Source: a virus (Duplodnaviria > Caudoviricetes). From it: a stretch of DNA of 64,000 bases. Below are positions 39,261-62,983 of this stretch, piece by piece. A program made the position numbers and the translations under genes. The notes under the pieces are model-generated. The model had not been told where the DNA came from. It searched no databases and worked only from the letters and a program-made list of their open reading frames with translations. Each line of letters starts with the position of its first letter. The first letter of the stretch is position 1. Location: IMG/VR virus record IMGVR_UViG_3300042542_005523; one strand, written 5' to 3'.

Positions 39261-39503
39261 ATGAAGAAATTTTCAACAGTTAAGGAATTAAACGAAATGG
39301 AGTTTGCACAACCCCTTATAAACTCCAAAGAAAACATGATGGATCTGCTTGTAGCAGCTTCTGGAAATGATCAAAGAGTTTTGATTGACATTGTAAATTG
39401 TCTAACAGAGGATCAAATGAAGAAGTGCTACAATAAGCTCATTAAGGTTTATGGATACACTGGCGCAGCTGGACAAAGAGTTGAGTTGAAGTCAAGAGCC
39501 TAA
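39261..39503 (+). CDS. Small hypothetical protein with a weak capsid-targeting-like N-terminus
   Basis: MKKFSTVKELNE; preceded by a GATATATA box. Confidence 0.55.
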   Translation: MKKFSTVKELNEMEFAQPLINSKENMMDLLVAASGNDQRVLIDIVNCLTEDQMKKCYNKLIKVYGYTGAAGQRVELKSRA

Positions 39504-39506
39504 TTT

Positions 39507-40229
39507 ATGATTCTAGTAGGAATAGACTTTTCCTTAAACTCACCTGCTTTTTGTGTGTTAGCCGATGGTAAGTACCATTGGGGATCAATCACTAGGTCTG
39601 ACAGAGACCGTGATTCCCTTTTGAAGAACGCAAAGAAGCCTTATGCTGTTCTATCAGCTAGTTCCGATTTCAGAATAGAGTTCCTAGATAGAAAACCTAT
39701 TCCTGATGAATATTCGGAAAGGGAAAGAATAAAGATCGACTATTTCCTGGATGTTGTTCTGACTTTATGGAATGGCATCTGTGACATAATAGACAATAAA
39801 GGGGAAGAGGTTAAGATAGCTATGGAGGGACTTAGTTTTTCCTCTAATGGTAATGCATTGATCGATATATCAATGGCTACAGCGCTATTAAGAGAAAGAA
39901 TATGCAGCCACATAGGAAGCGATAATTTCTACGTTTTCTCTCCTACGTCTATAAAAAAATTCGCTTTAAAGGGTAATGCTAAGAAGGACGAATTATATGA
40001 GGCTTTGAGTACTAGAGAAAAAGACGGAACAAACTTGGATAATTTTTGTAGAATACTAGCAGATAACAAATCTGAATGGGTTACAGGAGCGAAAGCTGTG
40101 AATAAGCCGGTTGATGATTTAGTAGATGCAACTTGGATTTTATTATACTTAAGAGAAATATTAGAAGGTAAAAATGAGAAAAATTTGGAGAAAACTAAGA
40201 GCAAAAAAAAGAAACTGGCTAAAGCCTGA
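39507..40229 (+). CDS. RuvC-like Holliday junction resolvase
   Basis: LVGIDFSLNSPA, AMEG, SPTSIKKFA..GNAKK, DDLVDA acidic catalytic pattern. Confidence 0.8.
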   Translation: MILVGIDFSLNSPAFCVLADGKYHWGSITRSDRDRDSLLKNAKKPYAVLSASSDFRIEFLDRKPIPDEYSERERIKIDYFLDVVLTLWNGICDIIDNKGEEVKIAMEGLSFSSNGNALIDISMATALLRERICSHIGSDNFYVFSPTSIKKFALKGNAKKDELYEALSTREKDGTNLDNFCRILADNKSEWVTGAKAVNKPVDDLVDATWILLYLREILEGKNEKNLEKTKSKKKKLAKA

Positions 40230-40283
40230 TCAGCAGCGTTCTGCAGCTGTATCTAAAATCAATAGCGACTTATTAAATTTGGG

Positions 40284-40291
40284 AAACTCAT
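40284..40291 (+). promoter_or_regulatory. Bacteroidota sigma70-type -7 element TAnnTTTG (TAAATTTG)
   Basis: Matches the Bacteroidota housekeeping consensus, in the gap before the SSB gene. No -33 element confirmed. Confidence 0.35.
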
Positions 40292-40332
40292 CTAGAATGG
40301 GCCAAATTATTACTGTCCTTTGCAAAAGCCAC

Positions 40333-40345
40333 GAAACAAAAGTAA
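40333..40345 (+). repeat. 13-bp intergenic repeat GAAACAAAAGTAA, copy 1
   Basis: Identical to 46932-46944. Confidence 0.6.
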
Positions 40346-40382
40346 GTAATTAAACTTAAATAAAAAAAAACAATTAAAAATT

Positions 40383-41375
40383 ATGAGTAACTTGAATGAC
40401 ATTTTCAATCTTGATGGCGACATGTTCGTAACCAAGACAAAATCTGGAGAATCTAAGGATTTGGAATTTTACAAGCCGTACCCCGAGGATGGTAAGGACG
40501 GTGTGTATAAAGCACTTATTCGCTTCGTACCAAATCCTGCAGATCCTAAGAAATCTAAGGTCCATAAATACTATGTGTATTTGAACGACCCACAAAGCGG
40601 AGACGGCTTTTCTGTAGACTGCCCATCTACAGTTGGTAAGAAGTCTATTTTAAAAGACATCTTCTGGAAGCTTAAGAACTCTCACTCTGCTGCAGATCAG
40701 GAGTTGGCTAAGAAATTCTCTAGAAAGGAAGACTATTATTCCTTAGTACAAGTAGTACAGGATAAGAATAGACCTGAATTAGAGGGTAAAATAATGATCT
40801 GGAAATTCGGTAAGAAGATCAATGATATGGTCGAGGCACAATTAAAACCAGAGTATGGTGACCCATGCAACCCATATGACCTATTCGACGGTAAACTTTT
40901 CGGAGTTAGCGTTAGAAAAGTTGGAGAATGGAACAACTACGATCTTTGTCAATTTGTAGGCGAGAGAGGACCAATCACCATCGATGGTAACAAGATGGAG
41001 AAAACACAAGAGGGAATGAACAGTGTTCTTGAGTATTTGAAAACCGGTCCTCAGAATCTTGGATCTTTTGAATATAAGGAGTGGGACGATAATTTAACCG
41101 AAAAAGTAATGGGCATCATCAGAAGCACAGTACCAGACGGAAGACTTATCAATGAAATCGTTAGCGGTGTATCCAATGCATCTTCTAATGCTTCATCAGG
41201 ACCAGCTAAAGCACCTTTTAAAGAGGACAAAGCTACTAGCGAATCTTCCGACTTCTATGCTGAGGTAACAACAAACTCAGCTTCTATGAAGCCAAATTCA
41301 GATTTCTTAAAATCTGAGACACCTAAGAGTTCAGGTGGATCTTCTTCACTAGAAGATTTATACGCAGATCTATAA
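40383..41375 (+). CDS. Single-stranded DNA-binding protein (T4 gp32-like)
   Basis: ALIRFVP, YYSLVQVVQD..PELEGKIMIWKFGKKI, NPYDL..G, NYD; acidic Ser-rich tail ending LEDLYADL. Confidence 0.85.
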   Translation: MSNLNDIFNLDGDMFVTKTKSGESKDLEFYKPYPEDGKDGVYKALIRFVPNPADPKKSKVHKYYVYLNDPQSGDGFSVDCPSTVGKKSILKDIFWKLKNSHSAADQELAKKFSRKEDYYSLVQVVQDKNRPELEGKIMIWKFGKKINDMVEAQLKPEYGDPCNPYDLFDGKLFGVSVRKVGEWNNYDLCQFVGERGPITIDGNKMEKTQEGMNSVLEYLKTGPQNLGSFEYKEWDDNLTEKVMGIIRSTVPDGRLINEIVSGVSNASSNASSGPAKAPFKEDKATSESSDFYAEVTTNSASMKPNSDFLKSETPKSSGGSSSLEDLYADL

Positions 41376-41389
41376 GATTTAAAATAATA

Positions 41390-42494: not shown

Positions 42495-42717
42495 TCCAAA
42501 CGAGATCCGCGATAAAATGGAAGAATGGGAAAATAGAATTGACGATGACTCGCATCCCAAATTTAAATTCCCCTTGGAAATTAAGGATTCTGACCTTGAT
42601 GTGTTAAACACCGATATGAAAGAGCCTGACGTGAAAAAACCTCAGGATAAAAAGAAAACAGTGGTTATTAAAACCATAGAAAATAAAAATAAGAAAAACA
42701 AAAAAAGTTTATTCTAA
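42487..42717 (+). CDS. Small hypothetical protein
   Basis: ATG 42487 overlaps the primase 3' end; its stop overlaps the next ATG. Confidence 0.5.
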   Translation: MDDPNEIRDKMEEWENRIDDDSHPKFKFPLEIKDSDLDVLNTDMKEPDVKKPQDKKKTVVIKTIENKNKKNKKSLF

Positions 42718-43166
42718 TGGAAAAAGAGGAAAAGCAAGAAGACTATAAGCAAATGTTTGATAGGGAAAGAGAAGAGTGGAGAGAAAAAATACAGTCTGTA
42801 GCACTTAATCTAAAAGACATAAGAACGGTTGCAAAAGCACAGGTCGATCTTTTTGGATACAGACAAATGCTTCTTGAATACAGCTTTAAATTAGCCGGTA
42901 TAGTATCTAAGCTTAATGCTAAGTACAGGGAGAGTAAATCTGCTAAGCTAAAAGAATACTCTGAGAAGACCGATGTTAGATACGGGTCTAACGAGAAGAC
43001 TGTTCTAATTGAGGGTGATTTAACAGCTTTGGTTGAAAAAATAGAACTCGTAGAGGGACATAGAAAATTCATGGACCAGACGGTTCAAACCGTGGATCAT
43101 ATGTTATATGGAATCCGCCAAAGGATAGCTCTCGAGGAATATCTGAGAGGGAGTACGGTAAAATAA
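42717..43166 (+). CDS. uvsY: Recombination mediator UvsY-like
   Basis: All-helical 149 aa, EKTVLIEGDL..LVEKIELV...FMDQTV..V..M.YGIRQRI; positioned near UvsW as in T4-like phages. Confidence 0.6.
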   Translation: MEKEEKQEDYKQMFDREREEWREKIQSVALNLKDIRTVAKAQVDLFGYRQMLLEYSFKLAGIVSKLNAKYRESKSAKLKEYSEKTDVRYGSNEKTVLIEGDLTALVEKIELVEGHRKFMDQTVQTVDHMLYGIRQRIALEEYLRGSTVK

Positions 43167-43201: not shown

Positions 43202-43894
43202 ATGGATTATTATGTTTATGTCTATCTAGATCCCAGAAGTCCTGGGTTTTACCAATATGGAGAATATAATTTTGATTATGAGCCTTTCTATATAGGAAAG
43301 GGAAGAAATTGGAGGTTTAGAAATCATTTATTAAAAGTTAAAAGAGGTAAATATCAGAATTTGCCAAAATTTCATACGATAAAACAAATATTGGAAGCTG
43401 GGATGGAACCGATAATTATTAAATATATTGAAAATTTAAACGAATCAGAATCTTTTACCATAGAGGAGGATATGATTCAAAAAATTGGCAGGAGAGATCT
43501 AAAAAGGGGTCCTTTAAGAAATCTCAGTAATGGAGGAGAAGGTAACGGTAACAGAAAATTTACCGAGGAACATAGAAAAAATTTAAGTGCTTCTAAAAAA
43601 GGCGTAGTTACCGAAAATTTAAAAAGCCATCTTGCTAACCTCCATAAAAAATTAAAGGGAAATAAACATACGCTGGGGCTTAAATTTTCCCAGGATACTA
43701 AAAATAAAATGATAGCATCTAGGATAAAACCTATCCTTAAGATTTCCTTGGATGGGACAATTTTGGAGGAGTTTTCTTCCATAAAAGAAGCAATAGAAAA
43801 AACTAACATAAATCCAAAGACAGTTCTGAGAGGGATTGGAAAAACCGCGGGAGGATTTATCTGGGCCTATAAAGATAAAAAAAATAATGCTTAA
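43202..43894 (+). mobile_element. Free-standing GIY-YIG homing endonuclease with NUMOD3/NUMOD1-type DNA-binding repeats
   Basis: YYVYVY...PFYIGKG..R..H; LRNLSNGGEG; KFTEEHRKNLS and KFSQDTKNKM (NUMOD3-like); ILEEFSSIKEA...TAGGFIW (NUMOD1-like). Inserted between uvsY and uvsW. Confidence 0.85.
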
Positions 43895-45410
43895 ATTTAT
43901 AGTATCTGACGATCACCAATGGCTTGTCCTAACCCAGTCTCCTGACGAGGTTGAGAAGAAGCAAATTGAGATATCGATGACTAAGAAAATACACAACCAC
44001 TTTTTCCATCCTTTGGTCAAGAAAAAAATATGGGACGGTAATGTCTGTTTCATAGAAAAGAAAGGACCATTCTGGAGAGTTCCTATAGGCTTGTGGAGAG
44101 AATTGATGCAGATAGGTGAAGAGTATAAAATAGAGATAGAGATAGACGGGCTAGCAAATATCATCAACCAGAAATTGACATTAGAAGAATTTACGGAGTG
44201 GTCTAATGAATTTTTTGATGATGCAGATAAAAAGCCCAGAGATTACCAGATAGAAACTGCATGGAAGATTATCAAATATAGATATTCTGTTTCAGAGGTA
44301 GCTACTTCCTCCGGGAAGACACTTATATCCTTTATGATATTCGCTTATTTGAAAAGCCAGGGCCTCATTAGGAAGTATATGATGATAGCACCTAATACTA
44401 ACCTTGTCATACAGGCAAGTGAGGATTTTGATGACTATGGCCTACAGAAACTGGGGGTTAAAATACAACAGATCGGAGCAGGTAATAAACTAAGACCAGG
44501 ATGTGATCTAATAATAGGTACATTCCAGTCCCTAGTGAAACAGGAGGCTGAATTTTTCGAAGAAGTTGATGCTGTATTCGTGGACGAAGCACACCATACT
44601 AATTCAATGTCCATCAAGAAGATAGTAGCAAAATGCATGCATTCCCAATGGAGATATGGACTTACCGGTACTTTAACAAAAAGAGGAACAGCGGACTATT
44701 TAACCATACAGCAGTTTCTTGGTCCATTGGTTGTTGAGATACCACCTAGCTTCCTTTTTGAAAATAATTATGCAACCCCGATATCAATAAAGGTTGTCAT
44801 TCTAGATTGGCTCGAGCAGGAATATAAGGACAAGCTATCCGAATTGAAGCTAAATCACGGTAATATAGAGGGAACAGAGATTTATAACGTTGAGAGGAGG
44901 ATGGTTGTTGAATCCAAGAAGAGGATCAACTATATTGTTGACTTTATATCGAAAATCTCCAAAAATTCACTGGTCCTATTTCAGTCTGTGAAGGACGAAT
45001 ATGGCAAACAAATATTCAATCTAATAAGAGATAAGAATAACGATAAGGAAGTTTTTTATGTTGATGGTGACACCGACGAGAATTTAAGGGAGGAGTATAA
45101 ATCAAGAATGGGTTTCGGAGAGAATAGAATCTTGATAGCAACATACGGAACATTTGCGACAGGGATTTCTATTAACAATCTTCACAATATCTTTCTTGTT
45201 GAATCATACAAGAGCGAGGTCTTAATCAAGCAAAGCTTGGGAAGAGGAATGAGAAAAATGGAAGGAAAGGAGAAAGTTAACGTGATAGACTTTGTTGATG
45301 ATTTCAGTAGTCCCAAATATCAGAATTATCTAATGAAGCACAGCCTTGTTAGAATCGAGATCTATAAAAGAGAAGGATTTTCTTATAAAGTATTCAAGGT
45401 TAAGCTTTAG
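43887..45410 (+). CDS. uvsW: SF2 DNA helicase UvsW-like
   Basis: PRDYQ, ATSSGKT, FVDEAHH, GLTGT, ATYGTFATGISI..LH, QSLGRGMR. Start 43887 overlaps the endonuclease stop. Confidence 0.92.
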   Translation: MLKFIVSDDHQWLVLTQSPDEVEKKQIEISMTKKIHNHFFHPLVKKKIWDGNVCFIEKKGPFWRVPIGLWRELMQIGEEYKIEIEIDGLANIINQKLTLEEFTEWSNEFFDDADKKPRDYQIETAWKIIKYRYSVSEVATSSGKTLISFMIFAYLKSQGLIRKYMMIAPNTNLVIQASEDFDDYGLQKLGVKIQQIGAGNKLRPGCDLIIGTFQSLVKQEAEFFEEVDAVFVDEAHHTNSMSIKKIVAKCMHSQWRYGLTGTLTKRGTADYLTIQQFLGPLVVEIPPSFLFENNYATPISIKVVILDWLEQEYKDKLSELKLNHGNIEGTEIYNVERRMVVESKKRINYIVDFISKISKNSLVLFQSVKDEYGKQIFNLIRDKNNDKEVFYVDGDTDENLREEYKSRMGFGENRILIATYGTFATGISINNLHNIFLVESYKSEVLIKQSLGRGMRKMEGKEKVNVIDFVDDFSSPKYQNYLMKHSLVRIEIYKREGFSYKVFKVKL

Positions 45411-45421: not shown

Positions 45422-45429
45422 GATATATA
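45422..45429 (+). promoter_or_regulatory. Putative phage late promoter box GATATATA
   Basis: 15 nt upstream of ATG 45445. Confidence 0.6.
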
Positions 45430-45444: not shown

Positions 45445-45999
45445 ATGAAAATCAAGAATTTTGACCGATTCATATCGGAGAATAGAAGATATTATAGTTC
45501 AGATCAGAGATACGGTCCTTTAAAGGGGAAGCTTTCCATTTTCAAGGACAGAGAAAGATCTAGCGATATAGGAAACTGGTTAGAGGATATAAAGGGAAGG
45601 GTTAAGAGTGAGATGGTAGCCAGAGCGGATAGACCAGGAAAGACTAAAAATCTAGGAGATCCTTTGGGAGTTTTAGGTTCGATATCTGGTTTTCTTCTTA
45701 ATCTAGGAGCTGGAGTTAGCGATGCCCTTTTCGGAGACGCTAAAAAAGGAGAAGACTATAAAAAGAGAAGCAAAGAGGATTTAGACAGATGGGAAAGAAA
45801 AACATTTAGCGGGGATCAGAAAAAAGTTACAGATAAGGATGCTGCTAGTTTTTACATGAATGGTGTGGAAAGAGGCAAGAAAATTTTCGGTAAAGACTTC
45901 GATCCAGACAAACCAAAGACTGAGGAAGAGAAAAGATATGCTGAGGATCTATACGATGCAACATCGAGATATTACGGTAGAATAAATCAAAAGAGATAA
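45445..45999 (+). CDS. Hypothetical, probable capsid-packaged internal protein
   Basis: N-terminus MKIKNFDRFISE (capsid-targeting-like); highly charged, with a Gly-rich amphipathic core. Confidence 0.55.
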   Translation: MKIKNFDRFISENRRYYSSDQRYGPLKGKLSIFKDRERSSDIGNWLEDIKGRVKSEMVARADRPGKTKNLGDPLGVLGSISGFLLNLGAGVSDALFGDAKKGEDYKKRSKEDLDRWERKTFSGDQKKVTDKDAASFYMNGVERGKKIFGKDFDPDKPKTEEEKRYAEDLYDATSRYYGRINQKR

Positions 46000-46006: not shown

Positions 46007-46933
46007 ATGAGATTAAAAAATTTCGTTGAGTTTAAGAATGTATCTGAAGGCGGGAAGGCTATTAAAAGCGCTAGACCAATCAGACAGGACGAAGCTATGA
46101 AAACTATAGAAAATATAAAGGAGGTTTTATTACCTCTTTTAGATCTTGATTCCTATAAAGAGGGAAAGGATTATATTTTTATAGGCTCAACTGGAAAAAA
46201 GAAAAATCCAGAGGACACGTCCGGTGATATAGATCTTGGATTTAACGGAAATTATTTTGCTACCAAGCATGGCATATCATTTAAAGAGTGCTCAAAGACT
46301 CTCATGGATATGCTAAGTCCCGAACTACCTAAAGTTCTTGGATTTGAGCCTGAAATGAATAATCTATCTGGACTGAATATACTTAGTGTAGCTTGGCCAA
46401 TAGCTGGTGATGCAAATAACGGGTTTGTTCAATTGGATCTTATGCCTCTTCAAAATATGGAATGGGCGAAGTTTATCTATTATTCACCTGATTATAGAAC
46501 GGACGAAAGCCAGTGGAAATCTGCTCATAGGAATTGGCTTTTGAGTGCAGCTCTTGTTGCAAGGAGGGAGATATTGGCTAATGATGAGCAAGGTGAGGTT
46601 TTAGATTACAGAACACCTGCTTTGATCCTGCCTAGTGGTTTATACCTTCAAACCAAAAGCTTTAGAGGTAAATTAAAGCCAAGATTAAAAAATGCCCAGA
46701 AGATTCCAGGAACGGAGGAATTCATAACAGACGATCCTCAGGAATTTATAAATTATGCTCTTGGACCAGGGTACAGCGAGAATGATGTTAAAACATTCGA
46801 AAAAGTTTTATCTATAATGACTTCTCCGAATTTCAAATATAAAGAATTTCTTCCCCAGATAAAGGAGAAGTTTATACAATTACTAAATAGAACAGATTTA
46901 CCAGTTCCACCTGAGACAGAAAAATTAGGTTGA
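46007..46933 (+). CDS. Pol-beta-superfamily nucleotidyltransferase with a capsid-targeting-like N-terminus
   Basis: IGSTGKK...SGDIDL (GS...DxD) plus a third Asp in VQLDLM; begins MRLKNFVEFKNVSE. Confidence 0.7.
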   Translation: MRLKNFVEFKNVSEGGKAIKSARPIRQDEAMKTIENIKEVLLPLLDLDSYKEGKDYIFIGSTGKKKNPEDTSGDIDLGFNGNYFATKHGISFKECSKTLMDMLSPELPKVLGFEPEMNNLSGLNILSVAWPIAGDANNGFVQLDLMPLQNMEWAKFIYYSPDYRTDESQWKSAHRNWLLSAALVARREILANDEQGEVLDYRTPALILPSGLYLQTKSFRGKLKPRLKNAQKIPGTEEFITDDPQEFINYALGPGYSENDVKTFEKVLSIMTSPNFKYKEFLPQIKEKFIQLLNRTDLPVPPETEKLG

Positions 46934-46944
46934 AACAAAAGTAA
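46932..46944 (+). repeat. 13-bp intergenic repeat GAAACAAAAGTAA, copy 2
   Basis: Identical to 40333-40345. Confidence 0.6.
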
Positions 46945-46973
46945 ATTTTAAGTTAAAATTAAAAAGCGAATTT

Positions 46974-48914
46974 ATGTCGAGTATTTCCCATCTACAGGAT
47001 CTTTACCACAAAAAAGGGAACGAGTTTATCAACAATCTCTTTAGCTCCTTCGTGACAGTGAACGAAAAGATGGACGGTTCTGCGTTCACATTTGAACGCG
47101 ATATCGATAATGGTAAGTTTAAGTTTTATAAAAGGGATCAAAGAAATCCCATCACGATGGTTGACCGAACCATTATGAAGTACTACGAGAAACCCATACA
47201 GTACATAGAGTCACTTCCGCCCCACATAATACAATTGATACCAAGAGGATGGAGATTTGGATTGGAATATTTCTCTTCACCCCAGCCACTTGAGATTGCT
47301 TACGATAGAGTGCCGAATAACAATCTCATTCTTTCATACGTCCATAAATTGGATAACGGTAGAGCAAAGTCAACTATACAGAGTAAAGAGGATCTAGATA
47401 AATGGGCTGATTTACTGGGAGTGGAAAAACCTCCTATTATTTTTCAGGGGAAATTAACAGATGGCCAAAAAAGAAGTATCCTTGAGTTTATAAACACACC
47501 ATTCTCTGATCTAATAGAGGAATTTAGAACAAAGAGCTTTGTAGCTTACATAGTTGGTGTTTTAAATCCTAAATTGGAAAAGACAGCATTGAATAATGAT
47601 CTAGAAAAGGCAATCGAAGGTATAGTATTTAGATTTGGCTCTGATGAGGAAGGTGAAGAACCTGTTTTAGCAAAAATGGTAGATCCGCTTTTCACCGAGC
47701 TGGCAAAGAGTAAATATGTCCAGAAGAAAGAAACAAAGCCTAGCGATTTCCTAGTTATAACTGTTCTAGATGTTATGAACTTCATACTAGAAAAGGGAGT
47801 TGGTAGTTTTGATTTTAAGGGGAAGACCGAAGACGAAAGATATCTTTCTTTCATTTCCGATGTGTTTGTTAACTTCTTAGATGAGTATAAGGAGAAGTAC
47901 AGCGAAACTGATTTCGAGGAACCTGAATATTTAAAGAAGGACGAGTTTAGAGTCAATAAGAAAATGGTTCCAAATAGAGCTGCTCTTGCCTATATAGAAG
48001 AAGATGATGCTTTCGAATCCCTATATAAATTGATTGTTAACCAGTTTAGAAAAATAAAAAAGAGAGCTGGTGGAATAATAAATCAGGATTTCATAGATCA
48101 GTTCAATTCAGTCGTGAAAGAGATAGAGGAAGCTATTTCTGAAAAAGAGGCTAAGAAAATAAACGAATCAGAGATACCTTCTTTTAATGATTTCAAATCT
48201 AAATTTAGAAAGAAAGTGGAGTATGTCACCGAGGAATCAGATAACGAGTCTGAAGAACCCCAACCATACGGCGAAACTTTCTCGCAATTCATATCAGATC
48301 TTGAGCATATAGACACAAAGGAAGTTAAAAATGTAGCTCCGCTAGAAGAGGATTCTAATAAAGATGAATTAAAGCCAATTAATATTATCGTTGGCAGATT
48401 CCAACCTTTCCATAAAGGTCACTTAGCAATGGCGAAAGAGCTAAAAGAGGAAAATGATTTACCATCTATAGCTATTGTAGTCTACCCTGGCCACAATAAA
48501 TCTGGCAAATCCCCATTCGACGAGAATGTTATAAAGACTTACATGGAGTCTGTTGTTAGAGAATACCCGGATTTGCTGAGTGGATTTCTAATTGTCAATA
48601 AAGGTCTTTTAGGTATTATAGCTGGAGAGGTTAGAAACATAGGCTATAGAATAGAGTTAATAGGAGCGGGTGAAGATAGAGTTGATGATTATAACAAGCA
48701 AGTAGATTACCTGGTTAAAGCGGGCAAGGAATTTCCAACCACTACAAAGATCTTTAAAACTAAAAGAATAGCTAGCTCAAGTGAGGTAAGAGATAAACTC
48801 AAGAATGAGGATTTCACAGCATTTAAGAAGTTAGTACCACCTTGCGTCGCTTCATTATACGCAACCCTTGTTTCTGGGGTACATAACGGATTAAAACAAA
48901 GTTCTAAAAAGTAA
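46974..48914 (+). CDS. Fusion of an ATP-dependent RNA-ligase-like adenylation domain and an HxGH (cytidylyltransferase/NMNAT-like) nucleotidyltransferase
   Basis: Ligase motifs I (EKMDG), III (GLEY), IV (EGIVFR) and V (LAKMVD); C-terminal IVGRFQPFHKGH, GAGEDRV, ASSSEVR. Confidence 0.7.
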   Translation: MSSISHLQDLYHKKGNEFINNLFSSFVTVNEKMDGSAFTFERDIDNGKFKFYKRDQRNPITMVDRTIMKYYEKPIQYIESLPPHIIQLIPRGWRFGLEYFSSPQPLEIAYDRVPNNNLILSYVHKLDNGRAKSTIQSKEDLDKWADLLGVEKPPIIFQGKLTDGQKRSILEFINTPFSDLIEEFRTKSFVAYIVGVLNPKLEKTALNNDLEKAIEGIVFRFGSDEEGEEPVLAKMVDPLFTELAKSKYVQKKETKPSDFLVITVLDVMNFILEKGVGSFDFKGKTEDERYLSFISDVFVNFLDEYKEKYSETDFEEPEYLKKDEFRVNKKMVPNRAALAYIEEDDAFESLYKLIVNQFRKIKKRAGGIINQDFIDQFNSVVKEIEEAISEKEAKKINESEIPSFNDFKSKFRKKVEYVTEESDNESEEPQPYGETFSQFISDLEHIDTKEVKNVAPLEEDSNKDELKPINIIVGRFQPFHKGHLAMAKELKEENDLPSIAIVVYPGHNKSGKSPFDENVIKTYMESVVREYPDLLSGFLIVNKGLLGIIAGEVRNIGYRIELIGAGEDRVDDYNKQVDYLVKAGKEFPTTTKIFKTKRIASSSEVRDKLKNEDFTAFKKLVPPCVASLYATLVSGVHNGLKQSSKK

Positions 48915-50005: not shown

Positions 50006-50548
50006 ATGGCTTCAATTAAAAAATTTAATGAATTCTTAGAATCTGTTTTCGAGTCCGATGGATTTGGAACAAAACCCTTTCTTTTAAGGAAAGAAAAGGA
50101 CATCTTTAACTATCTCTTCTACATAGACACAGGAGAGGAAGGAAAACAAGATGCCTTTAGACTTATGATTGGTAAATACTCAAGCCATCAGGTTATAGAT
50201 CAGCCTAAGAACTCATATTGCGTGCTTAGCGTTAATAAGCTATCATCCGAACAACTAGAGGATATATCGGTAACCAAAGCTGATTTGCCACCTACGACAT
50301 CCTCAGAGTTTAAAATGTCGGAAAGCGAGGTATCTAGACTATTCGAAACCATTTCTAAATGTATTTTGGATTATCTGGAGTATAATGCTAAAGTATCTAA
50401 GATTTACGACGAGATACAGGATAATCTAGTTTTCTCCGGTGAAGGCACCTATATGGAATTTATGAAATCTATAATTATTTCATATTTAGGCGAAGATTGG
50501 AGTGTACAGGAGGGAGTTGATAAAAATTCAATTTTAATCTCCAGATAA
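50006..50548 (+). CDS. Hypothetical, probable capsid-packaged internal protein
   Basis: N-terminus MASIKKFNEFLES. Confidence 0.55.
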   Translation: MASIKKFNEFLESVFESDGFGTKPFLLRKEKDIFNYLFYIDTGEEGKQDAFRLMIGKYSSHQVIDQPKNSYCVLSVNKLSSEQLEDISVTKADLPPTTSSEFKMSESEVSRLFETISKCILDYLEYNAKVSKIYDEIQDNLVFSGEGTYMEFMKSIIISYLGEDWSVQEGVDKNSILISR

Positions 50549-51369: not shown

Positions 51370-51780
51370 ATGCCTTCACAAAGTTCAGCACAACAGAGGC
51401 TTTTCGGACAAGCCTATGGTATCAAGACAGGAGAGCTTAAGCCATCAGATCTAAATCCAAAGTACAAATCTGAAATTCTAGCACTATCTAAAAAGATGAC
51501 CAAGAAACAGTTGGACGATTTCGCATCTACCAAGACCAAGAAGCTTCCTCATTATGTAAAAGAGGACGAAGTTAACGAGAAAGGTGGATTAGCAGTTGGT
51601 GGTAAAACAACTGTTGTTCCTCTTGTTAATGTTACAGGTGCGGAAGAATATTCGCCAAGTGGTCCTGGTCCAATAGTTCCTTTTCTAAATACAGACGTTC
51701 AGAAGAAAAAGAAAGGTAAAAAGAATTTACAGAATCTAAAAGATTATAGAGACTGGGTAAATGAAAATAAGGATCTATAA
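51370..51780 (+). CDS. DUF3008-like protein with a C-terminal extension
   Basis: MPSQSSAQQR...MTKKQLDDFASTK.K.LP..V matches the DUF3008 pattern. Confidence 0.65.
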   Translation: MPSQSSAQQRLFGQAYGIKTGELKPSDLNPKYKSEILALSKKMTKKQLDDFASTKTKKLPHYVKEDEVNEKGGLAVGGKTTVVPLVNVTGAEEYSPSGPGPIVPFLNTDVQKKKKGKKNLQNLKDYRDWVNENKDL

Positions 51781-51809: not shown

Positions 51810-52223
51810 GTGAAAAACGTACTTTCTTTTTCAGATTACGATCCAGCGGATGAATACAAATCCGAATTAAGGAGGGAGCTAAACCTTAATTCTGCTAGAA
51901 GAAGCCCTGCTTACAAGGAGCTTCTTCGTATGGGATTTGAGGAGGTAACATCAGATCAACAGGAACTTAATAACACCTTGAAGTTTATTAGAACCAGAAG
52001 ACATGCTAAGGACAAGGGTCACGATTTTCCTTTCTATACTATACATCCATCTGGGACTGTTAGAAGATACAATCCTCCGAAGTCAGCTGAGCAACCAGAG
52101 GGAAGCGGAAACGACATTAAAAATTTCCCAAAGCCTTTCATAAGAGGAAGAGATTATATAAAAGCTATTAAGTATCTAATAGGCTATCTAGAGAGAAAAG
52201 AAGAGAAAGGTGATTATAAATAA
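51810..52223 (+). CDS. Hypothetical protein (GTG start)
   Basis: MKNVLSFSDY N-terminus; ORF from the track. Confidence 0.55.
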   Translation: MKNVLSFSDYDPADEYKSELRRELNLNSARRSPAYKELLRMGFEEVTSDQQELNNTLKFIRTRRHAKDKGHDFPFYTIHPSGTVRRYNPPKSAEQPEGSGNDIKNFPKPFIRGRDYIKAIKYLIGYLERKEEKGDYK

Positions 52224-52530: not shown

Positions 52531-52977
52531 ATGTACTATCCAACAGGTAAAACAACAGAAGGCAGAGAATTGATCTGCATGAAAAAGAACGCTGATCTTG
52601 TTAATGAAAAATTAGGATCTTGCGATGAAGCTTGCATTATGGAATGCACAGACAATTGGCTGAATGAAAGCAACTCATGCGTTGCCTGTAATCAATTGAA
52701 CGAATATCTAAACGAGTGTGGTTACTCTATGCAAGTAAACGAGGATGGTGGAATGGCAGCTCCTCTAGCATCTTTAGGTGCTACCCCAGGCATGGGAAAT
52801 CCTGCTACACCGCAGAACGGTGGAACTAATGCTGGATTCTATAATCCTAGCTTATCTGGATCTGGTGATAAGTTTGACAGCCTAACTGTTGGAACACCTG
52901 CTGCCAATAAAAGAAAGAAGAGCCTAGTTAAGAAGTTTAGAGAATTTGTCAAACTTAAAGAGTCTAATAAGAGATAA
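52531..52977 (+). CDS. Hypothetical protein with several (L/V)NE sites
   Basis: LVNE, WLNE, QLNE, YLNE, QVNE; C-terminal VKKFREFVKLKES. Confidence 0.5.
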   Translation: MYYPTGKTTEGRELICMKKNADLVNEKLGSCDEACIMECTDNWLNESNSCVACNQLNEYLNECGYSMQVNEDGGMAAPLASLGATPGMGNPATPQNGGTNAGFYNPSLSGSGDKFDSLTVGTPAANKRKKSLVKKFREFVKLKESNKR

Positions 52978-55155: not shown

Positions 55156-55545
55156 ATGGCTAGAGAAATATTAATACAGGAAGAGTATCTGGACAATCCG
55201 TGGAGAATGATGGTCTGCTGTATATGTCTAAACCAAACAAACAATAAACAGGTTAGACCGATATTAGAATCCCTATTTTCCATAATACCTGATCAGGTAT
55301 CTGCTATTTCCTGTGAGAAGGAAAGAATTTCAGAATGTCTAAAGTCTACTGGATTCCAAAACGTAAAAGCGGATAGAATAAAAAAGATGAGTCAAAAGTG
55401 GATAGAAGGGTTCGAGAATCCTTCAGAGTTACCAGGGATAGGTAAATACGGTCAGGACTCCTGGGATATCTTCATAAATGGAAATACGGAAAGAGAAACC
55501 TCTGATAAAAAATTAATAACCTATCTGTCCTTTTTTAGAAGATAA
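55156..55545 (+). CDS. MBD4-like HhH DNA glycosylase (catalytic domain only)
   Basis: LIQEEYLDNPWRMMVCCICLNQT...ELPGIGKYGQDSWDIF parallels the MBD4 pattern LIQE...DPWKLLIATIFLNRT...ELHGIGKYGNDSYRIF, recalled from memory. Confidence 0.75.
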   Translation: MAREILIQEEYLDNPWRMMVCCICLNQTNNKQVRPILESLFSIIPDQVSAISCEKERISECLKSTGFQNVKADRIKKMSQKWIEGFENPSELPGIGKYGQDSWDIFINGNTERETSDKKLITYLSFFRR

Positions 55546-56364
55546 AGCCAGAGCCAATCTGTTTAAAAGACCATCCATTCTCTCAAAAAATTCTCCCTCG
55601 TATTGCATTTCTAGATTTGCTTCGTAATAGGGAATTCCTTTGTTTATATAGAAAGCTTCTACAAGTTCATCTGGGCAATTTATGCCAGAGTATCTACATT
55701 GGTAGACTAGTGGCATGATTGAATTTATCGGATCCCAGTTTGAATCACCTATCTCTATAGGGTCACTTGAGTAATCGTTTGCTCCATCGTCCCCGTGAAT
55801 GTAAAAAGCTGCGGTTTTTCCTTCTAGGTGATTCTTGAGGAGATTATCATATTCTCCTGATAATTCAGTCGGTCCGGTGATCTCAGAATTTTTAATATTA
55901 CCCTCGCCCATTATTTCTATGGCTTCTTCCCTGGTTAGCGTTAGATTAGCGCAAACCAATCTATCAAACATTGCTTTAACCTGGGTAGAAACCGAATACC
56001 AGTTTATAGGACTAACCACAAGGAAAGCGTCACACTCTTCCAGTTTATCGTAAATCTCCGCTTCATACATCAAGTCCTTTTTTTCCATGTCTTTTCCATA
56101 ACATGTACATTTCCAATGACAATGAAATCCACCCGAAGTAGAAACGCATCCTTTACATGGACTTATCGTTACATCCCCGATTGATAGGTCTATTACCTCT
56201 ATATCGTAAACACTAGACCAGTACTCAAATATGTAGTTGATCAATTTTTTAGATTTAGGTGTTTGGTTTGAGCAGGACTTTAGTTTTCTTGGCGAGCCCT
56301 GAAACACCAGAAGTTTAGGTTTGCTATATGTTCTAAATTCTTGAAATTCCCTTAGATTTTCCAT
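55513..56364 (-). CDS. NAD(P)H-dependent FMN reductase / iron-sulfur flavoprotein-like
   Basis: LLVFQGSPRK, ISPCKGC...CHWKCTC...KDLM, DAFLVVSPINWYSV..QVKAMFDRL, GKTAAF. Confidence 0.8.
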   Translation of the reverse strand: MENLREFQEFRTYSKPKLLVFQGSPRKLKSCSNQTPKSKKLINYIFEYWSSVYDIEVIDLSIGDVTISPCKGCVSTSGGFHCHWKCTCYGKDMEKKDLMYEAEIYDKLEECDAFLVVSPINWYSVSTQVKAMFDRLVCANLTLTREEAIEIMGEGNIKNSEITGPTELSGEYDNLLKNHLEGKTAAFYIHGDDGANDYSSDPIEIGDSNWDPINSIMPLVYQCRYSGINCPDELVEAFYINKGIPYYEANLEMQYEGEFFERMDGLLNRLALALSSKKGQIGY

Positions 56365-56401: not shown

Positions 56402-56701
56402 TTACTTCTTCTTAGCTGAATTGCTAAGAAATTCTTCTTTTAAATAATTAGTGATCTCTGTTGGTGATTTTCTCTTCTCTTTCACAATGCTAGTGAAATT
56501 TTCCGATTTGCCACACTCATCTAGAAAATCACAGAAATAAGATCCCTCGTACATTGGGTCTAGTACCTGGGGAAGAGGCTGGTGGGCTGATTGGTAATTT
56601 CTAGAATTAACCCGCGTAACGTATGCATCACCCGGAACCTGAACCGTTCCCGGATCAAAATCTTCGTTTAGAAAATCGGTAAGGGACTTTATATTTTTCA
56701 T
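56402..56701 (-). CDS. Hypothetical, probable capsid-packaged internal protein
   Basis: N-terminus MKNIKSLTDFLNE; a minus-strand GATATATA box lies upstream. Confidence 0.55.
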   Translation of the reverse strand: MKNIKSLTDFLNEDFDPGTVQVPGDAYVTRVNSRNYQSAHQPLPQVLDPMYEGSYFCDFLDECGKSENFTSIVKEKRKSPTEITNYLKEEFLSNSAKKK

Positions 56702-56815: not shown

Positions 56816-58234
56816 ATGATAGTAGATATAGAAAATAAAGGAACGTATCTGAACGTTTCTCATTTCAGTGACGAGGGCGATCTAGTTTTTTTGCACATTC
56901 CCGTTCCTGAGGAGGAGAGATTTGTTTGGTCAAAGTGCTATCCTAATGACAGAAAAAAAGACCCAGAATGGAAAGACTGGACGGGTGCACCAGTTAAAAA
57001 GGATCCTTCTGAGAGATACGATAAGTATAGAATGGCTCAAATGCTGGAAGAGTCAGATCGCAGCATAACAGCACCACTTTGGGAGTATCAGACACCAAAG
57101 AAATACTTTCTCGATATCGAGGTTGAGATCACGGATGAGATGGCAGATGCGTTAGATACGGAGAACACAAAGAATAGAGTTTTATCAATCGGTATCGCAA
57201 CAGACAAATGCAAGCTTATTGTTTTAGGTCTAGATCCTCTAACTCAAGAGCAACAGGTTTCCATTCATAATAAGCTGAATAGCTACTTCGAAAAAACCGG
57301 TGACGAGTGGAGCTTTAAATACAAGCAATTTGAAAGCGAGTATGATATGATGTATACTTTCTTTAAGGACATAGGATCGAAGATGCCATTCATTACAGGA
57401 TGGAACTGGCTAGGGTATGACTGGCCGTATTTGATAAACCGTGCAAAGAAGCTGGGAATAGATCCCAAGATGATATCACCGTCACGTACTCTAATAGGAA
57501 AGAATCAGCTACCACAACACATACTAATGGTCGATTACTTGGATATCTATAAAAAATGGGACCGTGTTATAAAGATCAAGGAAAGTAATAGGTTGGATTA
57601 TGTTGCTGAAAAAGCTATAGGACTCAAGAAGATCTCATATAACGGAACTCTCCGTGATCTATATCAATCTAATTTTGAAGACTTTATCTACTATAACGCA
57701 GTCGATTGTGCTCTTGTTCATTATATAGATCAGAAGCTAAAGACCTTACAGACTTTCTTTAAGATAGCATTGGTAACAGGCGTAGAAATTAATAGAGCAC
57801 TTTCCCCAGTTTGGTCAACAGAGAGCATGATGCTCAGAAAGTTCCTAGAAAGAAAACAGGTATTTGTTAACGAGAGGAAAGAAGAGCAGGCAGTTAAATT
57901 TGCAGGTGGATATGTTAAGGAGCCAATAGCGGGATTGCACGAATGGATAGCTTGTTATGACTTTGCCTCCCTGTACCCAAATACAATTGTTCAATGGGGT
58001 ATATCCCCTGAAGTCTATAAAGGGAAGAGCATATTAACTCCAAAGGAAAGTTGGGTTAAAACATCATCTGGTGCGTACTTCGGAGGAGAAGACGAAGAGC
58101 CTATACTAAGAGGCATAGTTAGCGATCTTTATGCAAAAAGAAGAGCTACAAAGAACAAAATGTTAGCTTTACAGATCGAAATCGATAGACTTGAAAAATT
58201 ACTAAAAAAAGAATCAGAAAATTCCCCTAAATAG
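56816..58234 (+). CDS. Family B DNA polymerase, N-terminal half (exonuclease plus first palm region), gp43A-like split gene
   Basis: Exo I LDIE, Exo II GWN..GYD..Y, Exo III YNAVD, GGYV, DFASLYP. Ends after KRRATKNKM; KxxxNSxYG and YGDTDS are absent. Confidence 0.88.
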   Translation: MIVDIENKGTYLNVSHFSDEGDLVFLHIPVPEEERFVWSKCYPNDRKKDPEWKDWTGAPVKKDPSERYDKYRMAQMLEESDRSITAPLWEYQTPKKYFLDIEVEITDEMADALDTENTKNRVLSIGIATDKCKLIVLGLDPLTQEQQVSIHNKLNSYFEKTGDEWSFKYKQFESEYDMMYTFFKDIGSKMPFITGWNWLGYDWPYLINRAKKLGIDPKMISPSRTLIGKNQLPQHILMVDYLDIYKKWDRVIKIKESNRLDYVAEKAIGLKKISYNGTLRDLYQSNFEDFIYYNAVDCALVHYIDQKLKTLQTFFKIALVTGVEINRALSPVWSTESMMLRKFLERKQVFVNERKEEQAVKFAGGYVKEPIAGLHEWIACYDFASLYPNTIVQWGISPEVYKGKSILTPKESWVKTSSGAYFGGEDEEPILRGIVSDLYAKRRATKNKMLALQIEIDRLEKLLKKESENSPK

Positions 58235-59785: not shown

Positions 59786-59803
59786 AAATAAGTTAAATAA
59801 AAT

Positions 59804-62320
59804 ATGCAAGTAATTAAGAGAGACGGTTCTAAAGAACCAGTGAGATTTGAGAAAGTTTCTAATAGAATTAGGAAGATGACCTATGGTCTAAATCAAGACC
59901 TAGTTGATCCTGTGGGTATTTCACAGAAGGTAATTGCGGGGATTTATGATGGTATATCCACTCAAGAGTTGGATACGCTAGCCGCTGAGACAGCTGCCTC
60001 TATGATACCGAAACACCCTGACCATTCCATTCTAGCTTCTAGAATTGCAGTTTCCAGACTGCATAAAACAACAAAGAAGAAATTCTCAGATACCATAGAT
60101 ACTCTTTATAATTACATAGATCCTGTTACTAACAAGCCAGCTGGAATGATTAGTGAAAAGACCTATCAGGTTGTAATGCAGAATAAAAACAAGCTGGATA
60201 GCGCAATACTACACGAGAGAGATTTCGATTTTGAGTATTTTGGATTTAAGACTCTTGAGAGAAGCTACCTATTAAAAACAAATGGCGAGGTAGCAGAAAC
60301 ACCGCAGCACATGTATATGCGTGTTGCCGCTGGTATATGGGGAGATGATATGAAGAACGTTATTAAAACTTACGAACTTCTTTCGAATCATATGATGACC
60401 CACGCAACGCCCACCCTATTCAACTCTGGAACTAGAAAGCCTCAACTTTCATCCTGTTTCCTTCTAATGATGGACGATGATTCAATTCCTGGTATCTATA
60501 AGACATTATCAGATGTTGCTGTTATCTCACAGAACGCAGGAGGTATTGGATTGGCTATTCATAACGTCAGAAGCACAGGTTCTTATATTAAAGGCACAAA
60601 TGGTAATTCCAATGGTATTATACCAATGCTAAGAGTTTTCAACGAGACTGCAAGATATGTTGATCAAGGAGGCGGAAGACGTAAAGGATCCTTCGCAATC
60701 TATATCGAGCCTTGGCATGCTGACATCGAGGATTTCTTAGATCTTAGAAAGAATACAGGTAAGGAAGAAAGAAGAGCTCGTGATCTTTTCTTGGCTCTTT
60801 GGACACCGGATATCTTCATGAAGAGAGTGAAAGAAAATGGCGAATGGTCACTATTCTCGCCATCTGACGTGGAAGGTATTTGGGAACTATATGGAGATGC
60901 ATTTGATCAAGCTTATATTGCTGCTGAAGAAGCTGGAAAGGCTAGAAAAACAGTCAAAGCAAGAGATCTCTGGGCGAAAATAATCGAGTCACAAATAGAG
61001 ACAGGAACACCCTATATTCTATACAAGGACCATGCTAATAAGAAATCCAATCAGAAGAATATCGGCACAATTAAAAGCTCTAACCTATGTACCGAGATCA
61101 TGGAGGTTACTTCTAAAGAGGAACAAGCCGTTTGTAACCTTGCATCCATTCCGGTTAACAAGTTCTTAAAGTCTACCGACGCTAGAACAACTAAGTTAAT
61201 AAGAGGCAAGTGCGACGTTGATCACGATGAGCTCTATAAGGTGTCTTATCAGACAACACTTAATCTAAATCAGGTTATTGATGTCAACTATTATCCAACA
61301 GAGGAGACTAAGAGATCCAATATGAAGCACAGACCAATCGGAATAGGCATTCAGGGATTGGCCGATCTATATGCCATCATGGGTATCGGATTCACATCGG
61401 AAGAAGCCAGAAAGATAAACTCTGATATTTTTGAGACAATATATTTTGCATCATGCACAGCTTCTAAAGATCTAGCAAAAGCCAATGGTGCATATGAATC
61501 ATTCGAGGGCTCCCCGATTAGCAAAGGAGAATTCCAGTTTAATATGTGGGGATTCAATGACGACGATCTTTCAGGAAGATGGGACTGGGGAAAATTGAGA
61601 AAGGATGTTATGAAACATGGTGTTAGAAACTCACTGCTATTAGCACCAATGCCTACAGCTTCTACAGCTCAGATCATGGGTAACAATGAGGCATTTGAGC
61701 CTTTCACATCTAATATCTACACCAGAAGAACACTATCAGGAGAATTTGTAGTTGTTAATAAGCATCTCGTGAAAGATCTCATCAATCTTGACCTTTGGGG
61801 AGAGGATATGAAGAATATGATCATAATCAATAAGGGATCTATACAGAACATTCCTAGCATACCGGATGATATCAAGGAGGTCTATAAAACGGTGTGGGAG
61901 ATTAAGCAAAAAGATCTATTGGATATGTCAGCAGACAGAGGAAGATTTATTTGCCAATCTCAGTCTATGAACTTGTTCATCGAGGGTGTGAATGCTGCTA
62001 AATTGACAGCTGCTCACTTCCATAGTTGGGAGATAGGCTTAAAGACTGGTATGTACTATTTAAGAACTAAATCAGCAGCTGATGCTCTTTCAGGGCTAGG
62101 AGTTGATCTATCTAAATATAAGACACAAAAGACAGAAGAGGCTAAACCAGTTCAAGCTGAGCCGGCTAAACAAATTGAGGTTACTAAAGTGGCAACTTCT
62201 CTGCCTCCGGAGATCACAGCCAATTCACAGGAGTTAGCTGACCTGGCTGCTAAATTAACTTCTGACATAGTCTGTAGTCTTGATAGCGGGCCAGACGAGT
62301 GTATTGCTTGCGGATCTTAA
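59804..62320 (+). CDS. nrdA: Ribonucleotide reductase class Ia alpha subunit with N-terminal ATP cone
   Basis: VIKRDG ATP cone, ATPTLFN, QLSSCF, SNLCTEI, VCNLAS, APMPTAS, KTGMYYLR, C-terminal CxxC-type redox tail. Confidence 0.98.
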   Translation: MQVIKRDGSKEPVRFEKVSNRIRKMTYGLNQDLVDPVGISQKVIAGIYDGISTQELDTLAAETAASMIPKHPDHSILASRIAVSRLHKTTKKKFSDTIDTLYNYIDPVTNKPAGMISEKTYQVVMQNKNKLDSAILHERDFDFEYFGFKTLERSYLLKTNGEVAETPQHMYMRVAAGIWGDDMKNVIKTYELLSNHMMTHATPTLFNSGTRKPQLSSCFLLMMDDDSIPGIYKTLSDVAVISQNAGGIGLAIHNVRSTGSYIKGTNGNSNGIIPMLRVFNETARYVDQGGGRRKGSFAIYIEPWHADIEDFLDLRKNTGKEERRARDLFLALWTPDIFMKRVKENGEWSLFSPSDVEGIWELYGDAFDQAYIAAEEAGKARKTVKARDLWAKIIESQIETGTPYILYKDHANKKSNQKNIGTIKSSNLCTEIMEVTSKEEQAVCNLASIPVNKFLKSTDARTTKLIRGKCDVDHDELYKVSYQTTLNLNQVIDVNYYPTEETKRSNMKHRPIGIGIQGLADLYAIMGIGFTSEEARKINSDIFETIYFASCTASKDLAKANGAYESFEGSPISKGEFQFNMWGFNDDDLSGRWDWGKLRKDVMKHGVRNSLLLAPMPTASTAQIMGNNEAFEPFTSNIYTRRTLSGEFVVVNKHLVKDLINLDLWGEDMKNMIIINKGSIQNIPSIPDDIKEVYKTVWEIKQKDLLDMSADRGRFICQSQSMNLFIEGVNAAKLTAAHFHSWEIGLKTGMYYLRTKSAADALSGLGVDLSKYKTQKTEEAKPVQAEPAKQIEVTKVATSLPPEITANSQELADLAAKLTSDIVCSLDSGPDECIACGS

Positions 62321-62329
62321 TTAAGAATA

Positions 62330-62337
62330 GATAAATA
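62330..62337 (+). promoter_or_regulatory. Putative phage late promoter box GATAAATA
   Basis: Ends 4 nt before the adk ATG at 62342. Confidence 0.55.
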
Positions 62338-62341
62338 GGAT

Positions 62342-62983
62342 ATGAATTCTAGCATTAAAAGATTTTCCGATTTTGTAAACGAAAGGGAGCTTCCTGATAA
62401 GCAGGGAAAAATAATAGTTCTACTTGGCCCTCCTGGATCAGGGAAAGGTACTCTAGCAAAGGGACTAATAAAGGACTATGATTTCCAGCACATCTCAACA
62501 GGTGATCTAATTAGAAACTCAGACGATAAGGAGCTGAAGAAAATCATAGCAAATGGAAAGATGATTCCAGATGATAAGATGCTTGAGATACTAAAGGAAA
62601 AAGTTAAGGAACTTGATTTAGAAAAAAATATAGCATTTGACGGATTCCCTAGGAATATAGAGCAATCTAAGATGCTAGATAAAATGCTAGGTAAGCTAGG
62701 TCTTGGTTTAAATTATGCTATTTTCTTAGACCTTCCAAGAGAAGAAGCAATCGATAGATTAAAGAAAAGAGCTAAAGAAGAGGGAAGGAAGGACGATGCT
62801 AGTTTTGAAACTATTAACAAGAGATTTGACGAGTATCTTGAAAAGACTTTACCTCTGATAGAGCTTTACACTAAAAACAGGAAAGTCAAGAGAATAGACT
62901 CGTCTGAAGGGAAGGATGCGGTTTTGTCTAATGTTGTTGATGCTTTGGGCTTGAAAAAGTCCAAGGAGCAAAATAAAGGATAA
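62342..62983 (+). CDS. adk: Adenylate kinase (short LID) with a capsid-targeting-like N-terminal extension
   Basis: LLGPPGSGKGT, HISTGDLIR, DGFPR..EQ, R.DD; about 22 extra N-terminal residues starting MNSSIKRFSDFVNE. Confidence 0.92.
   Translation: MNSSIKRFSDFVNERELPDKQGKIIVLLGPPGSGKGTLAKGLIKDYDFQHISTGDLIRNSDDKELKKIIANGKMIPDDKMLEILKEKVKELDLEKNIAFDGFPRNIEQSKMLDKMLGKLGLGLNYAIFLDLPREEAIDRLKKRAKEEGRKDDASFETINKRFDEYLEKTLPLIELYTKNRKVKRIDSSEGKDAVLSNVVDALGLKKSKEQNKG

Follow-up and report, generated by a model that had tools for sequence, protein, structure and literature searches.

A candidate capsid-targeting tag on unrelated proteins, including enzymes, of a Bacteroidota jumbo phage

Why should an adenylate kinase, a probable nucleotidyltransferase and several small proteins of one phage begin with nearly the same short stretch of residues? 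The question is raised by a 64,000-nucleotide segment of a virus of the Caudoviricetes (IMG/VR record IMGVR_UViG_3300042542_005523), the whole of which is called the window here. An earlier reading of its letters, referred to below as the original prediction, had quoted ten protein termini that resemble the capsid-targeting sequence (CTS) of phage T4, and had proposed that the phage packages and injects nucleotide- and redox-handling enzymes. All ten termini are found where they had been placed. The explanation favoured in this work, to which a probability of about 0.6 can be given, is that the shared N-terminus is a T4-type capsid-targeting propeptide, [IVL]-K-x-[FY]-x-x-F-[LIVM]-N-E then [SA], situated within the first 10-16 residues.

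The phage is a large, uncultured phage of Bacteroidota, and the window is a segment of its jumbo genome. Tail and baseplate genes of very large size lie in the first 39 kilobases (kb); beyond 39 kb there are genes for a gp32-like single-stranded DNA-binding protein (SSB), a helicase, Hsp70, a fragment of a family-B DNA polymerase (PolB), dUTPase, NrdA, NrdB and adenylate kinase. DnaK-encoding aquatic 'moraphages', whose predicted hosts are Bacteroidota, are similar to it in gene content (PMC12619734). Three relatives were used: G002, an IMG/VR contig of 181 kb that is about 95% identical to the window and 66% complete, with the protease region outside it, and the complete genomes G003 (290 kb) and G004 (271 kb), in which the orthologues of window proteins are 31-85% identical. 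The IMG/VR contigs come from freshwater samples. A search with the capsid protein of G003 led to uncultured huge phages, Lak phages, Flavobacterium phage MaF61, Tenacibaculum phage PTm1, Chryseobacterium phages and Sphingomonas phage PAU.

A shared N-terminus on unrelated proteins

To avoid circularity, a profile of 13 columns ([IVL]-K-x-[FY]-x-x-F-[LIVM]-N-E-[SA]) was trained on N-termini of G003 and G004 only, and a score of at least 8 was counted as an N-terminal match. Among the 55 window proteins scanned, five have such a match, as against 0.2 expected from internal positions; when the first 27 residues were shuffled 500 times, the mean was 0.13 matches and the maximum 3. The core pattern of the original prediction, starting at residues 4-6, occurs in 6 of the 55 proteins, and internally there are 11 matches in about 19,700 positions. 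The excess at N-termini over shuffled and internal sequence, on which that prediction depended, is thus borne out. The five proteins are the following, with lengths in amino acids (aa) and distances in nucleotides (nt).

45445-45999 (+): basic 184-aa protein without an assigned function; full tag MKIKNFDRFISE, then N; score 16.9; late-type box 23 nt upstream
46007-46933 (+): probable Pol-beta-fold nucleotidyltransferase, 308 aa; lengthened tag MRLKNFVEFKNVSE, then GG
50006-50548 (+): acidic 180-aa protein without an assigned function; variant tag MASIKKFNEFLESVFE, then SDGFG; score 8.1
56402-56701 (-): 99-aa protein; full tag MKNIKSLTDFLNE, then D; score 19.4; late-type box at 56732-56725 (-)
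62342-62983 (+): adenylate kinase; full tag MNSSIKRFSDFVNE, then RELPDKQGK, ahead of the P-loop; score 27.1, the best of the window

Each of the five has [LIV] at P3 and Glu at P1. The tags at 45445, 56402(-) and 62342 are strong; those at 46007 and 50006 are lengthened variants, with 2-3 extra residues ahead of the Glu. Orthologues at 47-69% identity retain the tag, and adjoining replication genes never carry it. As the original prediction had said, the gp32-like SSB, helicase, Hsp70, PolB fragment, dUTPase, NrdA and NrdB are without it, and the window gene at 46974-48914 gives no profile match of 5.4 or more.

The adenylate kinase identity of the 62342 protein is solid (PF00406, E = 1.8e-36, residues 27-179; P-loop GPPGSGKG at 29-36). 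Its tag, in the form [FY]-x-x-F-[LIV]-x-E, is kept in eight orthologous contigs at 49-98% identity, and all 15 of the other phage adenylate kinase matches begin at query residue 23 or later. The 46007 protein has no Pfam match and no sequence or profile match in the PDB. Its assignment to the Pol-beta superfamily of nucleotidyltransferases is supported by G60-S61 and D74-x-D76 (G-S...D-x-D), which are invariant in 12 orthologues of 48-97% identity, and by weak fold matches of an AlphaFold2 model (pLDDT 82): the top 50 Foldseek matches are all nucleotidyltransferases of this superfamily (Pol lambda/beta, TdT, CdnD, TUTases), at E >= 9e-3 and TM about 0.35. In the same 12 orthologues F6, F9, E14, G15 and G16 are invariant, and the model places residues 1-16, at pLDDT < 50, apart from the fold. 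The proteins at 45445, 50006 and 56402 belong to no recognisable family in Pfam or PHROG. Orthologues of the first, in G003 and G004, are 31-33% identical overall and retain tags scoring 22.5 and 26.0; those of the second read ...KFSDFSFHMNE and ...TFGQFINNMNE, each followed by SDGFG; and the G003 orthologue of the third begins MKNLKNFDNFLFE (score 20.6).

The signal extends to other genomes. G002 has 16 N-terminal matches against 0.53 expected, and the complete genomes have 24 (G003) and 18 (G004) tagged proteins; in these phages the tag is borne by 5-9% of the genes, or roughly 15-30 proteins. LR756500.1, an independent huge phage of 462 kb and 24% GC of which the first 400 kb were scanned, has 31 matches against 2.4 expected, nearly all of them MKYIKEYEEF[IL]xE. 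K, N, I, F and E are common in AT-rich phages, and a chance likeness that arises from biased N-terminal composition in an AT-rich genome has to be considered. The shuffled N-termini, however, fall far short of the five matches observed, and three AT-rich relatives used as specificity controls show no enrichment: PTm1 has 2 matches against 0.74 expected, Lak-A1 (26% GC; first 400 kb, TAG translated as Gln) 2 against 1.1, and MaF61 none against 0.39. Composition is therefore not the explanation, and these controls refute the chance reading, whose probability is negligible.

Some details of these scans deserve mention. LR756500.1 contains runs of adjoining small genes, for example at 312960-318055 and 11706-15898, which all start MKYI(K/L)EYEEF, and the first 400 kb hold at least 31 tagged proteins. 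G002 has at 706-9809 six paralogues of 204-352 aa that start M(K/R)HIK.Y..LFE, a form of the tag that is one residue shorter and ends L-F-E; two of them have weak LRR matches. The RlaP protein of G002 (score 8.1) was discarded as a false positive, its domain beginning at residue 7.

The likeness could in principle reside in the nucleic acid, as an A-rich, translation-enhancing start or a mobile promoter-plus-leader cassette, spread through recombination, with a functionless peptide. Many tags do start with an A-rich MK(N/H)IK, no Shine-Dalgarno sequences are apparent by eye in these phages, and tags often lie close behind a promoter box. Against this stands codon usage: at the conserved Phe and Glu columns the TTT/TTC and GAA/GAG ratios equal the genome averages, and in the hydrophobic column 10 different I/L/V/M codons are used. 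Since synonymous codons vary as they do genome-wide, selection acts on the protein, and because of these data we exclude a nucleic-acid signal. Furthermore, other late genes behind the same box lack the tag, and orthologues whose DNA has diverged to 47-55% protein identity still have F, F, [LIV] and E in these columns; an origin in the nucleic acid is accordingly a most improbable one. The tag also precedes the Pfam domains of the proteins that carry it: ADK starts at residue 27 and, in tagged proteins of the relatives, RimK_N at 23, CHAP at 62, GDPD at 110 and SLT at 183. The tag is a conserved, protein-level add-on.

Resemblance to the capsid-targeting sequence of T4

In T4 the CTS is present on IPII and IPIII (MKTYQEFIAE) and on IPI, and is removed by the prohead protease gp21 (Mullaney and Black 1996; reviews PMC9026906, PMC3012670). 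Amber suppression has mapped targeting to residues 4 and 7 and processing to residues 8 and 10 (summarised in PMC9026906). The profile, which had never been shown T4, ranked IPIII and IPII first and second among 158 open reading frames (ORFs) of T4 1-100 kb. Its most informative columns are F/Y (3.7 bits), F (3.9 bits), [LIVM] and E; the F/Y and F stand three residues apart, like Y4 and F7, and the four columns align with T4 residues 4, 7, 8 and 10. The T4 likeness that had been noticed in the window is therefore confirmed, both by the ranks of IPIII and IPII and by the coincidence of the informative columns with the T4 determinants.

The same ranking bears on the idea that the tag is a recognition leader of a modifying enzyme, similar to those of ribosomally synthesized and post-translationally modified peptides (RiPPs). 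Such a leader would have to account for a profile that picks the experimentally defined T4 CTS. Moreover, no radical-SAM match is present in G003, G004 or PAU, there is no Clp/Hsp100-type AAA_2 ATPase in G003, G004 or LR756500.1, and G003 has tags without having a DnaK orthologue. This explanation appears very unlikely.

The correspondence with T4 is close in several respects. Both systems place an N-terminal add-on of 10-16 residues on unrelated proteins, with aromatic residues at the equivalents of positions 4 and 7, [LIV] at 8 and Glu at 10, and relatives of the window phage encode an S77 protease. There are also differences. T4 has three such proteins, whereas here there are roughly 15-30 per phage; P2 shows a strong preference for Asn, where IPII and IPIII have Ala; and the tag usually starts at residue 3-6, rather than at residue 1. 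The cargo in T4 consists of small basic proteins, whereas here it includes enzymes (adenylate kinase, nucleotidyltransferase, RimK-type ATP-grasp, GDPD, CHAP, SLT). A few proteins here have Glu-less copies at the C-terminus. The proposed mechanism is known from T4; what is new is its scale, the Asn that occupies P2, the enzymes among the cargo and the copies at C-termini. In the literature searched, no paper was found on such tags in this clade, or linking capsid targeting with huge, Lak or 'moraphage' genomes.

In T4 itself, the third-best profile match in 1-100 kb, after IPIII and IPII, is gp61.1 (NC_000866 18966-19130, -), a hypothetical protein of 54 aa with the N-terminus MKTFKEFIKED. It may be an unrecognised CTS-bearing protein.

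Processing and cargo loading in other phages offer further points of comparison. In the phiKZ-like giants (201phi2-1, phiKZ gp175, SPN3US gp245) numerous proteins of the head and of the ejection set are processed after Glu by a gp21-related protease (PMC5694885, PMC10052503), and a role in directing cargo to the prohead has been suggested for the propeptides. Among the Pfam families matched by the G003 protease is S80, which is of the phiKZ type. The phiKZ-like propeptides, however, mostly exceed 100 residues, have no shared short tag and are cut at an S/A/G-x-E type motif, whereas the tag described here is short, stereotyped and T4-like. T4 Alt, a packaged ADP-ribosyltransferase that is processed by gp21 at both ends, and Dar of phage P1 are precedents for enzymes or anti-defence proteins that are loaded into the head and ejected with the DNA. 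Neither is homologous to the cargo found here, and the P1 Dar proteins are not T4 CTS proteins.

Head genes, protease and late promoters

A connection with the head is suggested by the cultured Sphingomonas phage PAU (NC_019521). Seven PAU proteins share a sister tag, MK[TSG][IL]..LYE..LNE. Three of the five proteins that are annotated 'internal capsid protein' carry it in full (Fisher p = 9e-5), and a fourth of these five, as well as the scaffold, share its first half. PAU is a jumbo phage with a T4-gp23-type capsid protein, which was matched by that of G003, and its sister tag ends in the same L-N-E-[AS]; the capsid protein itself contains A-K-L-N-E-S. It differs in that the sister tag reads L-Y-E-x-K-L-N-E, with one aromatic residue, that no enzyme cargo was recognised among PAU proteins, and that the sister tag is absent from the record text and from PMC5646251.

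Within PAU, the annotated internal capsid proteins with the tag are gp142, gp154 and gp270. The same tag is present on the unannotated gp16, gp133, gp143 and gp153, for which a place among the internal capsid proteins is predicted. Only the first ten residues of the sister tag occur in gp152, the scaffold, and in gp199.

A gp21-like protease is found in G003, G004, LR756500.1 and PAU. In G003 and G004 it (PF03420, PF20034; phrog_207 E = 1e-38) is fused to a tail of about 430 aa. The G003 fusion contains 8 [LIVM]-N-E sites against 0.77 expected (P = 1.6e-6), making it the densest G003 protein of at least 150 aa, and its G004 orthologue has 7 against 0.85 expected. In T4 the scaffold gp22 is degraded by the phage's own protease, gp21, and a crowding of sites is expected of such a scaffold. 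In the capsid protein of both genomes, residues 39-45 read H-S-L-N-E-S-A and lie ahead of the Gp23 domain, and in the head module of these relatives 4-5 tagged proteins without an assigned function follow the capsid gene.

Two large proteins of the relatives are rich in such sites. In the protease fusion (G003 43277-45307; G004 46011-47960) the tail of about 430 residues holds six of the eight [LI]-N-E sites, within residues 519-648, and by this distribution the protease-scaffold fusion looks like one that destroys itself. An orthologous pair of 876 and 792 aa (G003 24941-27571 and G004 26842-29220), behind a GATATATA box, has 7 [LIVM]-N-E sites in each member and is the second-densest large protein; it may be a head-internal or ejection protein that is cut at several places.

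A third line of evidence concerns the time of expression. The original prediction had placed several of the genes directly behind a GATA[TA]ATA box, and the boxes lie where it had put them.

39233-39240 (+): GATATATA late-type promoter box; others at 45422, 51334, 58257 and 62330 (+) and at 56732-56725 (-)

The window has 12 such boxes, every one of them intergenic and oriented like the gene that it precedes. Genes for tail, baseplate and protease likewise stand behind late-type boxes, both here and in G003. Of the six boxes between 39.2 and 64 kb, five are followed by a tag-bearing gene (Fisher p = 0.005), and tagged genes are enriched behind the box with odds ratios of 5.5-13.6 and p down to 5e-6. 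The tag is therefore associated with the late-type box, which is found ahead of structural genes too.

If the tag is a T4-type propeptide, the sequence of events might be as follows. The two aromatic residues would dock the protein onto the core of the assembling prohead, the likely partner in the relatives being the scaffold-like tail of the protease-scaffold fusion. A gp21-like S77/S80 prohead protease would then cut after the Glu of [LIV]-N-E, and the mature protein would remain in the head alongside the DNA.

Several observations weigh against this explanation. Packaging, cleavage and ejection into the host are, for this clade, extrapolated from the T4 precedent, and the evidence on protease and head module comes from relatives and not from the window's own genome. 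PTm1 and Lak-A1 have the protease and lack the tag; MaF61 has no tag and no protease match. The GenBank record of PAU does not state the basis of its 'internal capsid protein' labels. The mature PAU capsid protein has 520 of 585 residues (PMC5646251), a length that fits cleavage at L-M-E(62-64) only within one residue and does not fit the K-L-N-E site. The adenylate kinase gene directly follows NrdA and NrdB and looks like an ordinary gene of nucleotide metabolism; its late-type box, 4 nt from the ATG, occurs in close relatives only and not in distant orthologues.

These last points also favour the remaining serious rival, in which the tag would serve docking or processing at some hub other than the capsid interior. 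Late enzymes might be held inactive by it until it is cut in the cytoplasm, or it might direct proteins to a factory for assembly or replication; the T4 likeness would then reflect only a shared specificity of the protease. Adenylate kinase and nucleotidyltransferase sit in a module of replication and nucleotide metabolism, the late box of the former is not conserved at a distance, and the mature tagged proteins do not consistently have the basic isoelectric point of T4 internal proteins, no consistent difference being found in that property. On the other hand, the two aromatic positions match the targeting residues of T4 and not the cleavage residues, tagged proteins cluster right behind the capsid gene, and in PAU the sister tag is borne by proteins annotated as internal to the capsid and by the scaffold at its N-terminus. 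T4-type prohead proteases, moreover, act inside the prohead (PMC5694885). Docking at another hub is thus considered unlikely, although it has to be taken seriously, and capsid targeting is the explanation that we prefer.

Possible delivery, C-terminal copies and neighbouring genes

If capsid targeting is correct, the cargo is of interest in its own right. Tagged proteins of the relatives have RimK-type ATP-grasp, GDPD phosphodiesterase, CHAP, SLT, PG_binding_1 and OmpA-like domains. By inspection, those of the CHAP, SLT, PG_binding_1 and OmpA-like kinds have no signal peptide, and their N-termini are hydrophilic, charged and of the tag type; they would therefore need delivery by the virion to reach the cell wall from outside. 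By analogy with T4, injection followed by an early or anti-defence action is plausible, though tentative. Equally speculative is a wider picture, in which the head would serve for protein delivery in general: a portable tag, cleavable when N-terminal and left in place when C-terminal, would load the products of 5-9% of the genes. Metabolic enzymes (adenylate kinase, nucleotidyltransferase, RimK-type ATP-grasp ligase, phosphodiesterase) and cell-wall hydrolases might then be ejected and act before phage expression, both in this Bacteroidota jumbo lineage and in at least one 462-kb phage.

The consequences would be considerable. Should the tag work as in T4, one could draw up from sequence a list of the proteins that uncultured jumbo phages package and probably inject, and their injected 'effectorome' would become readable. 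Some of the cargo on that list would be unexpected; a nucleotide kinase and a nucleotidyltransferase, for example, might have a role early in infection. The tag would provide a ready-made handle for loading foreign proteins into Bacteroidota phages. For this clade of proteases, the predicted cleavage specificity is [LIV]-N-E then [SA].

Two window proteins had also been proposed to carry the motif at the C-terminus.

51370-51780 (+): DUF3008 protein; C-terminal copy of the aromatic half, ...NLQNLKDYRDWVNENKDL; late-type box 36 nt upstream
52531-52977 (+): 148-aa protein with a Gly/Pro/Ala-rich linker and a Lys run; C-terminal copy ...LVKKFREFVKLKESNKR

The copy at 51370 (score 13.1) is the best internal profile match in the window. 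Its orthologues end NLQNLKDYRDWINQK and NLQNLKDYRDWIANK, retaining the aromatic half but not the Glu, and those of the 52531 protein end NLISYMDFIRNRKK and SLLSYVDFIKKRKK. In both families [FY]-x-x-[FW]-[IV] behind a Lys-rich linker is kept and the Glu is not, so that the proposal stands for the aromatic half only. Across genomes the C-terminal enrichment is weak: G004 has 3 matches against 0.36 at a higher threshold, and the other genomes are near expectation. Judged from their sequences, these C-terminal copies of the aromatic half are apparently uncleavable and would fit a docking motif that does not need to be removed.

Beside the five tags described above, the original list contained three N-termini that fall under the profile threshold.

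39261-39503 (+): 80-aa protein with a possible variant tag, MKKFSTVKELNE, then M; aromatic residue at 4 and L-N-E at 9-11; box 28 nt upstream
51810-52223 (+): 137-aa protein with a GTG start; aromatic half of the tag only, (M)KNVLSFSDYDP
55513-56364 (-): FMN-reductase-like flavoprotein (PF03358, E = 6e-10, from residue 16; 39 bits against a cut-off of 24)

The first scores -3.6, and MKK[FY]....[EQ]LNEM is conserved in G003 and G004. The second has no [LIV]-x-E; its G004 orthologue has an ATG start and MKNILSFKDY, the N-terminus being MKNILSFKDYEP. For the flavoprotein the proposed tag MENLREFQEF was rejected, as the [LIV]-x-E half is absent (score -1.3). The flavoprotein has no orthologue in G003 or G004, and the sole diverged orthologue, 40% identical, begins MDIKDIRNQSEK. 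Among the enzymes, adenylate kinase and the probable nucleotidyltransferase consequently keep their tags; the flavoprotein does not, and with it the claim of a 'redox-handling' cargo falls.

Some neighbouring genes remain to be mentioned. A GIY-YIG/NUMOD homing endonuclease (43202-43894, +; PF22945, E = 8e-12) lies between a conserved gene for a 149-aa protein (42717-43166) and the helicase gene. Neither G003 nor G004 has a counterpart, so a recent mobile insertion is probable. At 56816-58234 (+) the ORF for the family-B DNA polymerase has only 472 aa, which cover the exonuclease domain and the beginning of the polymerase domain; the enzyme appears to be split, an arrangement that some T4-related phages share. 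In the baseplate region, the late-box gene at 1424-2593 (+) encodes S1/OB-fold domains (PF00575, E = 3e-15), with an N-terminus, MYQEFENEEF, that scores below the profile threshold. Next to it, at 2583-3989 (+), a 468-aa protein with an Amidoligase_2 match (PF12224, E = 5e-6) places an enzyme domain amid tail and baseplate genes.

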